A DNA stretch of 44,217 nucleotides from Microbacteriaceae bacterium BACL25 MAG-120322-bin65 (GTDB lineage: Bacteria > Actinomycetota > Actinomycetes > Actinomycetales > Microbacteriaceae), in the NCBI GenBank assembly GCA_001438965.1, contig LIAY01000001.1:1-44217 (forward strand), in the 5' to 3' direction. The translations under genes and the position numbers were made by a program. Positions 3-4,419 of this stretch are shown piece after piece; the stretch's first letter is position 1; every line of letters starts with the position of its first letter. Below the pieces are notes generated by a model that saw only the letters and a list, made by a program, of their open reading frames with translations, did not search any database and was not told the DNA's origin.

Positions 3-521
3 AGCTCGGGTAAGTTCCTAGAAATCAACCGCAACCTGGTCGAGGCACTGCGTGAGCGTGGCCTGTGGGAGTCCACTCGTGAGGACATCCTCCGTAGCCA
101 GGGAGACATCCAGGGCATCGAATCAATTCCTCAGGAGCTCAAAGACATCTATAAGACAAGCTTCCAGCTTTCCTCATTCGCGTTCTTGGAGGTTGCAGCG
201 AGGGCTCAGAAGTGGATTGATCAGGCCATTAGCCGCAACATGTATTTAGAAACCCGGGATATCGATGACCTCATGTCGATTTACTCCGGTGCCTGGAAAC
301 GCGGCGTCAAGACCACCTATTACCTGCACATGAAGCCTCGCCACACTGCCGAGCAGTCGACAGTGAAGGTTAATAAGTCTGCGCAGGTTAATGATTCAGG
401 AGCGTCCACCCCGAGAAAAGGTTTCGGGGCAGCGCCCAAGACAACACAAGAGCCCCTCGCCGCCGCAGCCACCCCCAAAAAGGGCTTTGGTTTCGGTTCC
501 ACACCTCAGGCAGGGGAGTAA
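3..521 (+). CDS. nrdA: Ribonucleoside-diphosphate reductase alpha subunit, 3' part (5' end outside window)
   Basis: Frame open from base 3 (SSGKFLEINRNL...) to TAA 519-521. Contains QKWIDQAISRN and RGVKTTYYL (tandem Tyr of the radical pathway) and lies directly upstream of nrdB. No Cys in the visible C-terminal 172 aa. Confidence 0.95.
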   Translation, partial: SSGKFLEINRNLVEALRERGLWESTREDILRSQGDIQGIESIPQELKDIYKTSFQLSSFAFLEVAARAQKWIDQAISRNMYLETRDIDDLMSIYSGAWKRGVKTTYYLHMKPRHTAEQSTVKVNKSAQVNDSGASTPRKGFGAAPKTTQEPLAAAATPKKGFGFGSTPQAGE

Positions 522-526
522 GCACG

Positions 527-613
527 ATGAACTCTCTCGCCACAGACACGGTTGACGGTTACGCCGTTCCCACAGACCCAATGGAACTACTGCAGTGCGA
601 TAGCTGCCAGTAG
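527..613 (+). CDS. 28-aa acidic peptide ending in CDSCQ; resembles the NrdA C-terminal redox-active CxxC tail encoded as a separate ORF
   Basis: ATG 527 to TAG 611-613, hand-translated as MNSLATDTVDGYAVPTDPMELLQCDSCQ. GGGGAG at 513-518 lies 8 nt before the ATG. Too short to appear in the ORF track. Confidence 0.8.
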   Translation: MNSLATDTVDGYAVPTDPMELLQCDSCQ

Positions 614-655
614 GCCACAACCCCTAAAAAACGACTCGAAAGTAAAGGAAAAACG

Positions 656-1639
656 ATGGGAATTCTCGGACAAGGAGTACAAGAAGGTCTCCTTCTGAAG
701 CCAGTGAAGTACAAGTGGGCAATGGATCTCTACGAACAGGCGGTGGCTAACACCTGGTTCCCCAACGAAATTCAGTTGGGTGAAGACATTGCTGATTTCA
801 AAAAGATGACCGATGAAGAGCGTCACGCGATCACTTTCTTGATGAGCTACTTCAACCCCAGTGAACTGCTGGTCAATAAAGCTCTCGCCTTTGGCGTTTA
901 CCCCTACATCAATGCCCCCGAGGCGCACCTCTACCTGGCCAAGCAGATGTGGGAAGAAGCCAACCACTGCATGAGCTTCGAGTATGTCTTGGAGACGTTC
1001 CCGATTGACCGTGAGGCCGCCTACGCACAGCACGTGGATGTGCCCTCGATGGCCAGGAAAGAAGAATTTGAAGTCGGCTTCATCCGTCGCATGACGGAGG
1101 AAACCATCGACATCACCACCACTGAGGGCAAGCAAGACTTTGTGCGCAACCTGGTTGCTTACAACGTCATCCTCGAAGGTATTTGGTTCTATTCGGGCTT
1201 CATGGTCGCGTTGAGCTTCCGCCAGCGCAACCTGTTGCGTAACTTCGGATCCCTCGTGGACTGGATTGTTCGAGACGAGAGCCTGCACTTGAAGTTTGGA
1301 ATGAACCTGATTCTTACTGTCTTGGAAGAAAACGAAGACCTGCAAACGCCGGAGTTCGCTAGTGAGATTCGCCAGATGATTATTGATGCTGTCGAAATGG
1401 AAGAGCAGTACAACCACGATCTGCTCCCCAACGGAATCTTGGGCCTCAATGCCAACTACATCAACCAGTACGTGAAGTATTTGGCTGATCGCCGTTTGGA
1501 AGAACTCGGCTTTGAAACCGAATACAACGTGAGCAACCCGGCTAAATGGATGGCCACAGCCAATGACACGTTGCAGTTGGTGAACTTCTTTGAGTCGACC
1601 AATACTTCTTATGAAGTAAACGCCACGTCAACGAAGTAG
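656..1639 (+). CDS. nrdB: Ribonucleotide reductase beta subunit, class Ic (R2c)-type
   Basis: Ferritin-like ligands E70, E101-x2-H104, E174, D207-E208-x2-H211. F108 occupies the radical-Tyr position. C-terminal NFFE...Y319. AAAGGA RBS. Confidence 0.95.
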   Translation: MGILGQGVQEGLLLKPVKYKWAMDLYEQAVANTWFPNEIQLGEDIADFKKMTDEERHAITFLMSYFNPSELLVNKALAFGVYPYINAPEAHLYLAKQMWEEANHCMSFEYVLETFPIDREAAYAQHVDVPSMARKEEFEVGFIRRMTEETIDITTTEGKQDFVRNLVAYNVILEGIWFYSGFMVALSFRQRNLLRNFGSLVDWIVRDESLHLKFGMNLILTVLEENEDLQTPEFASEIRQMIIDAVEMEEQYNHDLLPNGILGLNANYINQYVKYLADRRLEELGFETEYNVSNPAKWMATANDTLQLVNFFESTNTSYEVNATSTK

Positions 1640-1745: not shown

Positions 1746-2588
1746 ATGAAAACTCCTGCGAACCAGCCTTCCCGGATGCTCAACACGGGGGACTCCATTC
1801 CTCAGCTAGGAATTGGTGTCTTCAAAGTTGATGACGATGAATGCGAACGTGTTGTCTTAGAGGCACTCGAGGTTGGCTATCGCCATATCGATACGGCCAT
1901 GATCTACCGCAATGAGGCAGCCGTGGGCCGGGCTATCGCCCACAGCGGTATTCCCCGCGAGGAACTCTTTGTCACCACCAAACTCTGGAATGCCGACCAA
2001 GGTGCGGATGCGACCGCTGGTGGGTTAGCAACAAGTTTGGAACTTCTAGGCCTGGAGTATGTCGACTTGTATCTCATTCACTGGCCAGCGCCGCTTCGTG
2101 ACGTGTACGTCGAGACCTGGTTGGCCTTGGAAGAGCTCTATGCCACGGGAGTAACTAAAGCCATTGGGGTGTCAAATTTTGAACCTGCTCACCTCGAGAG
2201 GATCTTAGAAGCGGGTTCGGTGGTTCCCGCAATCAACCAGGTCGAGCTTCACCCCGCGTTCCAACAGCGCACTCTGCGCGCCTTCCAGGAGCCTTTGGGT
2301 ATCCTCACTGAAGCCTGGGGGCCTCTGGGCCAGGGTAAATACGACCTAGCCGAGATTGCCGGTCTAGGCGAGATTGCCCAGGCACACGGAAAGAGCATCC
2401 AGCAGGTTGTCCTGCGTTGGCATCTGCAAGAAGGGGTCATTGTGTTCCCCAAGACGGTGCGCAAGCAACGCATGATCGAAAACCTTTCTGTTTTCGACTG
2501 GGAACTCAGTGACGAAGAAATGGTGCTGATGAAATCCATGGATGCAGATCGCAGGGTTGGCACACATCCTGAGGATGGCAACTGGTAG
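1746..2588 (+). CDS. Aldo/keto reductase (DkgA-like)
   Basis: [31 protein letters not shown] and NQVELHP motifs. ATG 1746 preferred over TTG 1710, which lies in the terminator tail. Confidence 0.92.
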
Positions 2589-2592
2589 GCAG

Positions 2593-4419
2593 ATGAACCG
2601 CTTGGATGGGTCGCAAAGCCCCTACTTGCAGTCCCATTCCGATCAGCCTGTGGACTGGTACCCCTGGGGCGAGGAGGCTTTCGCGGAAGCCGCCAGACGG
2701 GATTTACCCGTCTTTATCTCTATTGGCTACCAAACCTGCCACTGGTGTCATGTCATGGCGAGGGAGACCTTTAGTAACCCCCTCGTTGGGGAATACATCA
2801 ACAAACGCTTTATCTCCATCAAGGTCGACCGGGAAGAACACCCTGATGTGGATGCCGCCTATTTGGCTCAGGCGGTGGCCTTTGGGGACAAATTGGGGTG
2901 GCCGCTCAACGTCTTTGCTGACTCTCAGGGCGTGGCCTATTTTGCTGCCACTTATTTACCTCCTGTTACGAGAATGAAGCAGCCGTCTTTTCTCGAAGTG
3001 GCTAAGACGCTCTCGCGAGCGTGGAACAAGAAACGTAGTGAAGTTCGAGCCAGTACTCGAGCGCTCAAAGAAGCCGTGCACGAAGCAGCGCTGGTTAATG
3101 CCAGAACCGGTATTGAGCAGTTTCCAGACCAAGCACGTCTGGCCAAAGCGGCTATGGAGCTAATGAGTCAAGAAGATAAGATGTATGGCGGTTTGGGAAC
3201 GGGCCCCAAGTTTCCGATGGCTCCAGCCCTCCGATTTCTGCTGAGCCAAGAAGGCCTTGGCAATGAAGAAGCCGGCTTAGCGGGCAGGCGCATTCTTGCC
3301 AGTTATGCGCCGTCACCGCTTCGAGACCCCGTTGAGGGTGGATTTTTTCGATATGCCACAAACCGGGATTTCACCTCCCCTCACCACGAGCGCATGCTGA
3401 ACGACAATGCCAGCTTGCTCACTGCGTATGCGATGGCGGGTTCACTTGATGTTGCTGCCGGGATTGTGTCGTTTTTTCGCAACCAGTTGCTTGGTGAGGG
3501 CGCTCTCGCGTCGGCTCAGGATAGTGAAAGCTCCGTTGATGGCCAACCCAACGATGGCGGCTATTACGAAGCAGACGCTTCCACTCGGAGCACCCTAGAG
3601 CCACCTCAGCTGGACGACAAAGTCGTTACCGCGTGGAATGGGTTGGCTCTAGAGGCGCTAGCCCATGCCCATCGGGGCGGAGTGGCTGGTGACCCTGGTG
3701 GTTTAGGCACGGATATTGCAACCTGGTTGATCGATCACCACATCAAGGACGATGGCAGTGTGATTCGCATGTCCAGAAACGGTGCCCACAGCTCTGCTGT
3801 TGCCACCTTGGCTGATTATGGTGGACTCGCACTGGGACTCATTGAGTTGGGGTTAGCCACCCAGCGTGCCGATTTTGTAGCGAAAGGCCGCGACGTTCTC
3901 GACTATGTGATGGTCCGCGGCACCAACATCGAGCAGGACCCTGTTTTAGCGGCTCGAGGTTTGGGGTGGACTCCTGATATTTCTGAAGGCGTCAACCCCA
4001 ATGGCCTCTCACTTTTGGCCCTTGCGAGCATTCGCTTGGCGGCACTGACGGGTAAAGAGGCTTATCGCGAGTATGCATGGTTCCTCGTTTCACCTTTGAT
4101 GAAGCAGGCCTTGGCCATGCCACAAGGCATGGGTGCTCTGCTCTCAGCACTGAGCGAGCTTGCGACCAGGGCGCGCGAAGTCATTGTCATTGATGATGGT
4201 GACTCCACGCTTTCTGACATGGCAAAGAATTACCAACGGACGGGAACGGTGGTCGTCACCGCCAATTCTGCTCAGGCACAACAATTCTTGGATTCTGGAT
4301 TCAATCTTTTTGAATCCAGAACGTCCGGCTTGAGGGCCACGGCCTATGTGTGCACCGAAGGCGTGTGTGCGCTTCCGGCAACGACACCCGAAGAGTTTGC
4401 CCGGCAATTAGAGGACTAA
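2593..4419 (+). CDS. Thioredoxin domain-containing protein (YyaL/SSP411, DUF255 family)
   Basis: [61 protein letters not shown]. Confidence 0.9.

Follow-up and report, generated by a model that had tools for sequence, protein, structure and literature searches.

A Putative Cysteine-Pair Tail of Class I Ribonucleotide Reductase Encoded as a Separate Peptide in Microbacteriaceae

The two-Cys active site of class I ribonucleotide reductase (RNR) alpha subunits is described as being re-reduced by a flexible tail that shuttles to the thioredoxin TrxA (available text of PMC11903788). In the window, i.e., the whole 44,217-nt stretch of DNA analyzed here, the nrdA gene ends without any such cysteines and is followed by an open reading frame (ORF) for a 28-aa peptide, which the first-pass annotation took for the missing Cys-pair arm. 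This locus raises the question of whether the tail of this NrdA could indeed be supplied as a separate, trans-acting peptide.

The nrdA-nrdB junction

The 3′ end of nrdA, encoding a class I RNR alpha subunit, occupies positions 3 to 521 of the forward strand; the contig starts inside the gene, and only the last 172 amino acids of the NrdA of this genome have been assembled. This part of the protein matches PRK06539 (E value, 8e-74) and is 86% identical to the full-length NrdA of a relative (G014); its nearest named relatives, mostly Pontimonas MAGs (Microbacteriaceae), are 91 to 93% identical. The frame is open from the contig start to the TAA at positions 519 to 521 and, as had been noted in the first-pass annotation, the 172 visible residues do not include a single Cys. 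The KTTYYLH sequence (309 to 329, forward strand) aligns with the TTYY motif of PDB entry 5im3, which closes the catalytic barrel; the Tyr-Tyr pair of this motif is responsible for radical transfer in class I RNR alpha subunits. The residual end of the protein (414 to 497, forward strand) is of low complexity and carries two basic-aromatic motifs, RKGFG (414 to 428) and KKGFGFG (477 to 497); it possibly serves as a docking arm. One or two copies of this basic-aromatic (GFG) motif are present in all 117 split NrdA ends, as well as in 20 of 25 fused ones.

Since only the last 172 residues are available from this genome, the active site was checked in its relatives. Full-length tail-less NrdAs retain both redox Cys residues, the Asn, the Glu, and the Tyr-Tyr pair in all 40 aligned sequences and the thiyl-radical Cys in 39 of them. 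One MAG-derived NrdA (L236:1048-3537) has Ser at the thiyl-radical position and appears to be either an error or an inactive copy. In all five genomes tested, two of them single-contig, the tail-less NrdA is the only class I or class II alpha subunit found, with no NrdD.

The small ORF starts with the ATG at position 527, 5 nt after the nrdA stop codon, and ends with the TAG at 611 to 613 of the same strand. It is preceded by a Shine-Dalgarno-like GGGGAG (513 to 518, forward strand) that lies within the last nrdA codons, 8 nt before the ATG. That this separate ORF, with its ribosome-binding site, fits between nrdA and nrdB had been claimed before and is confirmed by the sequence; among the relatives, a Shine-Dalgarno-like word is found ahead of 80 of the 109 peptide starts, compared with 142 of the 746 windows taken as controls from within nrdA. 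The predicted product is an acidic peptide (net charge of −5), homologous to the C-terminal tail of NrdA, with the conserved core Y-x-V-P-x-D-P-M-x-x-L-Q-C-[DE]-S-C-Q at positions 560 to 610, Cys24 at 596 to 598, and Cys27 at 605 to 607; its C terminus reads C24-D-S-C27-Q-stop. The peptide has no match in Pfam, NCBIfam, or PHROG, so its identity with a redoxin or with any known family has been rejected.

The nrdB gene (656 to 1639, forward strand), encoding the RNR beta subunit, has its own Shine-Dalgarno-like AAGGA at 645 to 649 (forward strand). Its product contains Glu70 and has Phe108 at the position of the radical Tyr, a class Ic-type signature. Phe at the corresponding His+4 position was seen in all 246 motif occurrences, with loci not de-duplicated. 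The closest PDB entry is 1syy, the Chlamydia class Ic protein, and Glu70 aligns with its Glu; Glu as the first metal ligand is a class Ic criterion. A redox-inert residue at the radical-Tyr position is likewise described as a class Ic feature of beta subunits (available text of PMC9531940). The host enzyme is of class Ic type across the clade, probably with an Mn/Fe cofactor. Downstream of nrdB, the window encodes an aldo/keto reductase (1710 to 2588) and a DUF255 protein with a thioredoxin domain (2542 to 4419). A search of positions 300 to 1800 found no promoter and no forward-strand terminator.

The junction has been traced in other data. Contigs of four DNA runs show no variant letter and no indel at positions 505 to 530; two of these runs, X10 and X11, hardly differ from the window and may have been its source. 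X12 and X13 belong to two studies, and a difference at positions 455 and 456 marks X13 as another strain. Contigs of four RNA-library runs (three samples, two studies) also span nrdA, the peptide ORF, and nrdB with the junction unchanged. In these contigs, both differences within the ORF (at 544 and 550) are synonymous, and indels (at 627 and 648) are confined to the spacer; these contigs speak to the junction and not to transcription. The same split is seen in all 19 same-genus nrdA ends (18 relatives plus the window), so the small ORF did not arise by chance. Neither the reads nor the close relatives therefore contain the continuous nrdA ORF that would have pointed to an assembly error or a strain-specific lesion, and both of these are excluded by the contigs of the eight runs together with the split relatives.

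Distribution and origin of the peptide

The family survey covered an even sample of 301 Microbacteriaceae genomes, in which the co-occurrence of the peptide with Cys-less NrdA, proposed in the first-pass annotation as a check, is clearly seen; these counts include kin and are not independent. The peptide is encoded in 141 genomes, the same number by DNA pattern and by profile. NrdA of this type, with its end, was found in 137 genomes (129 by motif and 8 by protein search), all of them among the 141, and in none of the 160 peptide-free genomes, with a query that gave E values of 3e-61 or lower in the positive ones. Three peptide-free genomes searched at a low threshold yielded distant alpha subunits only. 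Among the 137 NrdA ends, 136 are Cys-free and one is fused to the peptide; the peptide gene lies directly behind nrdA in 129 cases, and in 7 there is none there. The trait also tracks within the mixed genera g73 and g91. As for the other four peptide-positive genomes, in two of them (G173 and G149) NrdA is cut at a contig end, its N-terminal part being 88 to 89% identical, and one (G290; 88% complete, 550 contigs) has no alpha subunit in the assembly. The true exception is G221, which combines a mobile peptide copy with only a distant alpha subunit that ends in its own Cys pair.

A similar picture emerges from 80 named loci: the split form with a peptide copy next to nrdA accounts for 74, three (two from Gryllotalpicola and one from Amnibacterium) have none adjacent, two are fused, and one is cut off. 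In one genome (G068, locus L096), the adjacent copy is present, with a lost stop and an extended end. The fused NrdAs in the family are those of G294 (locus L463), which is part of the sample, and of L262, a MAG with an upstream frameshift. In G294, the peptide in its two-Cys form is fused in frame to NrdA at the point where the stop codon of its relatives overlaps the peptide start. Both fusions could reflect natural re-fusion or an assembly indel; with these two, the split has exceptions.

Outside the family, the same sequence is part of NrdA itself. All 25 NrdA loci from seven sister families end in the peptide sequence, fused, and the peptide shares 15 of 22 residues with the end of one fused protein (P0084). 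In more distant relatives, the Cys-pair end is fused in 114 of the 123 proteins with a readable end (27 of 150 were unreadable). A phylum-wide sample of 400 contained this NrdA type, at an E value of 1e-30 or lower, in four other genomes; leaving aside the unpublished G480, the three that were examined are fused. The fused NrdAs of one sister family (L172 and L413 to L428) have very long Ala/Pro-rich linkers of ∼190 to 240 aa between the barrel and the tail; such a tail would be close to a free one on a leash. In a tree built with a quick method, 42 cellular split NrdAs form one branch (SH-aLRT support of 86, not starred), so split NrdA may have had a single origin; this tree left out L262 and L148 because of their short sequences, and the long-branched phage protein L400 was not placed.

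The free peptide varies in length from 21 to 41 aa, with a gene of roughly 80 bp, and has a median charge of −6, compared with +2 for the arm at the NrdA end. Both Cys residues and the terminal Gln are invariant in 41 aligned copies that were found by position. The third Cys of the fused tails (C-P-x-D-P), present in all 25 sister-family proteins, is replaced by Val or Ile in every one of the 103 host operon cores. In 103 distinct operon copies of the 17-codon core, pS is 0.67 and pN is 0.11; for the 10 core codons that are not fixed by the search pattern, these values are 0.60 and 0.18. By this measure (pN/pS of 0.11/0.67), the predicted peptide is under purifying selection. In the databases, some copies have been named “subunit beta” by NCBI, an automatic label, and others are listed as hypothetical. 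Judging by these genomes, about half of the Microbacteriaceae encode the putative Cys-pair tail of NrdA as a separate peptide.

Distant, phage, and plasmid copies

Most genomes encode a distant second copy of the peptide behind tandem NrdR boxes. In the seven genomes without an adjacent copy, nrdA runs directly into nrdB (down to ∼6 nt), and the peptide gene is found at another site, preceded by NrdR-type boxes; this distant boxed copy is the sole one in six of them, and G302 has one more. Three of three phage contigs that carry this tail-less nrdA have the peptide gene upstream of it. Since the peptide is also encoded far from nrdA, any action of it has to be in trans, and its predicted function cannot depend on being joined in cis to NrdA.

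The NrdR-type motif is a 16-bp palindrome learned from 51 nrdA promoters only, with a spacing of 32 in 47 of them. It carries all six published NrdR box positions, C4, A6, A8, T9, T11, and G13, which are given together with a searched linker range of 14 to 17 bp and a usual linker of 15 to 16 bp in the available text of PMC13584703. Of the 44 copies that stand alone in bacterial genomes, 33 have such palindromes in tandem in front of them (pair scores of at least 13.4, with 400 random windows scoring at most 5.5). In 27 of these 33, the boxes, mostly 33 apart, have a 17-bp linker, within the searched range and off the main 15 to 16 bp. The 11 unboxed stand-alone copies are mostly found in many-copy genomes with mobile-looking surroundings. 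The nrdR gene is present in all five genomes tested. Genome G297, which has up to eight peptide copies, includes several mobile-looking ones (L174 to L177) in which the motif closes a longer ORF of 115 to 136 codons, stop to stop.

In 10 of 24 same-genus genomes, the second copy precedes an APH-like gene and two MaoC-like genes and has its own Shine-Dalgarno sequence and hairpin. A search of the genome of the window by pattern, profile, and NrdR-pair scan found no second copy; the usual neighbors of that copy are also missing from this 83%-complete assembly.

Peptide genes are also found in mobile elements. A strict pattern applied to one-third of IMG/VR gave 120 viral loci (about 370 estimated in all), none of which is fused to NrdA. 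Among 45 carrier records (40 IMG/VR contigs picked for length, 3 phages, and 2 plasmids), one was found to encode RNR alpha, and none of 18 near-complete peptide-carrying phages has NrdA. Named carriers are Pontimonas phage phiPsal1, Clavibacter phage CMP1, phage Pan2, and 19 plasmids. In phiPsal1, the peptide ORF is unannotated and lies behind the holin gene; in plasmid pCM2, it is located between an ArdC-like gene and ssb. In phages of ∼16 kb (L281, L288, L289, L296, L297, and similar IMG/VR loci), the ORF is found between the terminase and portal genes, and in other phages right after holin or endolysin genes. The identified phage neighbors are thus mostly late genes, not those of DNA metabolism, so the idea of a dNTP booster fits them less neatly. 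Only 1 of 76 phage copies has NrdR boxes scoring above controls. A motif scan around 380 pattern matches for redoxin genes beside the peptide gave one convincing case, L182:446-828, where a mobile peptide ORF overlaps the start of a gene for a 93-aa glutaredoxin-family protein (CVQC, NrdH-like). Phage Pan2 (L196, ON968453.1) is recorded on Pseudanabaena and carries a peptide of the actinobacterial family (Pan2_27); this host label may deserve a check.

Predicted function and relation to known systems

The 28-aa peptide most likely works in trans, as a dithiol shuttle that links thioredoxin to the active site of NrdA. This was also the central proposal of the first-pass annotation, and it gains support from the tail homology, the co-occurrence with Cys-free NrdA, and the copies far from nrdA. 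Electrons would pass from thioredoxin, or a redoxin like it, to the free peptide, which at the end of each turnover would reduce the disulfide in the active site of the tail-less NrdA; the oxidized peptide would then be re-reduced by TrxA and thioredoxin reductase (TrxR). Its ORF is likely translated mostly through coupling to the nrdA stop codon, and the conserved Y-x-V-P-x-D-P-M-x-x-L stretch could give the free peptide enough affinity for NrdA. The basic GFG arm of NrdA (charge of +2) could hold the acidic peptide (−6) in a docked form, but most fused relatives share the GFG motif. The NrdR-boxed second copy could be expected to furnish more peptide than NrdA at times of dNTP shortage, and a gene of roughly 80 bp would offer phages and plasmids the cheapest route to a raised dNTP output of the host.

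As for the electron donors, four of the five genomes tested encode both TrxA and TrxR; one of them, G000, has TrxA, TrxR, a glutaredoxin-family gene, and nrdR. In the fifth one, G052 (0.9 Mb, one contig, 98% complete; loci L148 and L188), which encodes the tail-less NrdA and one distant NrdR-boxed peptide, the searches found no TrxA above the cutoff, no TrxR, and no glutaredoxin. Since this genome keeps the system, thioredoxin is not a universal donor. Complex prediction for one NrdA-peptide pair (L239, from Microcella alkalica) gave a score of 0.40, compared with 0.01 for the best control, with no interface in the output; contact agreement between runs was at least 58%, and the partner pLDDT was at least 53. 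For calibration, 116 of 157 solved complexes and 2 of 215 mismatches attained the mark, and the range up to 0.60 holds 18 of the 157 solved complexes and both mismatches. This score lends weak support to an NrdA-peptide complex and may reflect likeness to solved tail-bound RNR structures.

Three other explanations have been weighed against the trans-acting shuttle. If thioredoxin or a small thiol reduced the tail-less NrdA directly, the peptide would be a dispensable modulator, e.g., a redox-sensitive plug of the active site. Dithiothreitol is reported to reduce the class II protein NrdJa directly with low efficiency (available text of PMC4520616), and the lack of TrxA and TrxR in G052 can also be cited in favor of this option. 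However, this NrdA never occurs without the peptide among the 160 peptide-free genomes, both Cys residues are invariant in the aligned copies, and NrdR boxes would raise the peptide level under demand for RNR output, as befits an activator; direct reduction is accordingly considered unlikely. It is more doubtful still that the acidic CxxC peptide binds a metal, Zn or the Mn/Fe of a class Ic-type NrdB, in cofactor assembly or sensing and takes no part in disulfide exchange. The net charge of about −6 next to a CxxC motif, the class Ic signature of NrdB, the automatic “subunit beta” labels, and a 117-kb viral contig (L337, from G762; 68% complete), where the peptide gene lies directly before nrdB and no alpha subunit was found, would all agree with metal binding. 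Yet the peptide has the sequence of an NrdA tail and is fused to the alpha subunit in all 25 sister loci, the third Cys of those tails is missing from every host operon core, and the NrdA disulfide would be left without a shuttle.

The least credible of the three is recoding, whereby a frameshift, readthrough, or hop would join the tail to NrdA and yield an ordinary working enzyme. In its favor, 92 of the 109 adjacent copies are in the −1 frame; in the window, this frame stays open over the 124 nt leading up to the nrdA stop, with C-AAA-AAG at 476 to 482. Nevertheless, the remaining copies are in the other two frames (12 and 5), the distance between nrdA and the peptide ORF varies from −4 to 58 nt, only 1 of the 109 has a canonical slippery heptamer, and the open overlap is five codons or less in 42. 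The overlaps of −1 and −4 are those of the usual stop-start coupling, and recoding would not work in the seven genomes without an adjacent copy or in the three phage contigs with the copy upstream. With mixed frames, variable gaps, and no shared slippery site, recoding has been rejected.

Beyond the trans-acting shuttle itself, a wider proposal can be considered plausible on balance. About half of the Microbacteriaceae would have a three-component class I RNR with a freely diffusing micropeptide arm, produced in excess from a second, NrdR-controlled gene, so that the peptide level sets the dNTP flux; the gene would be carried by itself in conjugative plasmids and in hundreds of phages, some as small as 16 kb, and serve there as a minimal auxiliary metabolic gene for tuning the host enzyme. 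If so, few phage or plasmid genes that act on the host nucleotide supply would be this small. The peptide accounts for one group of class I enzymes that seemingly lack C-terminal cysteines and exposes an unannotated or misnamed family of small genes that common bacteria of freshwater, marine, soil, and plant habitats probably cannot do without. The usual tail is disordered and tethered, which makes it difficult to investigate how the RNR active site is re-reduced. A tail that is free by nature can be synthesized, titrated, trapped, and crystallized with the enzyme, so that its binding, half-site asymmetry, and the step that limits the turnover rate become open to direct tests. No description of a free class I RNR tail peptide was found in the literature searched, with most subscription journals and supplements outside its scope; the sequence tables of RNR phylogeny papers could list these Cys-less NrdAs.

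The closest precedent, by analogy, is the class II NrdJa-NrdJb system of Pseudomonas aeruginosa, in which the catalytic chain likewise lacks C-terminal cysteines. NrdJb is described as a separate gene product that mediates thiol-disulfide exchange, is needed in vivo, and forms a tight 1:1 complex (available text of PMC4520616); it has folded IscU-like and zinc finger domains (available text of bioRxiv 2022.04.23.489257). In contrast, NrdJa is an adenosylcobalamin-dependent class II enzyme, whereas the system described here has a class I alpha subunit, with PRK06539 and PDB entry 5im3 as the best matches, and nrdB; its predicted peptide is a bare tail of ∼27 aa with no family match, duplicated and mobile. 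This precedent, as well as the NrdR-boxed second copy and the phage and plasmid copies, is absent from the first-pass annotation.

The yeast R1 subunit has a CX2C tail that reportedly acts between subunits, regenerating the active site on another chain (Zhang et al., PNAS, 2007), which would make action in trans chemically plausible. That study is cited for the role of CX2C in the available text of PMC6382339. That tail stays covalently attached to the R1 chain and there is no free peptide, whereas the peptide described here is separate.

The class I alpha tails themselves, such as those of E. coli NrdA and Bacillus subtilis NrdE (C695/C698), share with the peptide the terminal C-x-x-C-Q and a D-P motif, and CXXC ends are reported for 1737 of 2022 class I sequences (available text of PMC9531940); the nearest fused tails are those of the sister-family NrdAs (L412 to L436, L191, L192, and L271). 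Unlike them, the peptide is not a covalent part of the alpha subunit, 136 of 137 NrdA ends in the family stopping before it, and it has its own gene, often in two or more copies, with an NrdR-boxed promoter and with homologs in phages and plasmids. Finally, the redoxins of RNR operons, NrdH and glutaredoxin, are, similarly to the peptide, small CxxC proteins encoded in nrd operons, and they feed electrons to RNR; a glutaredoxin-NrdB fusion is described in Facklamia ignava (available text of PMC6187632). In contrast to the peptide, which shows no fold match, has a terminal CxxC, and would be the tail itself, these redoxins have a thioredoxin fold of ∼80 aa with an N-proximal CxxC and act on the tail, one step upstream.
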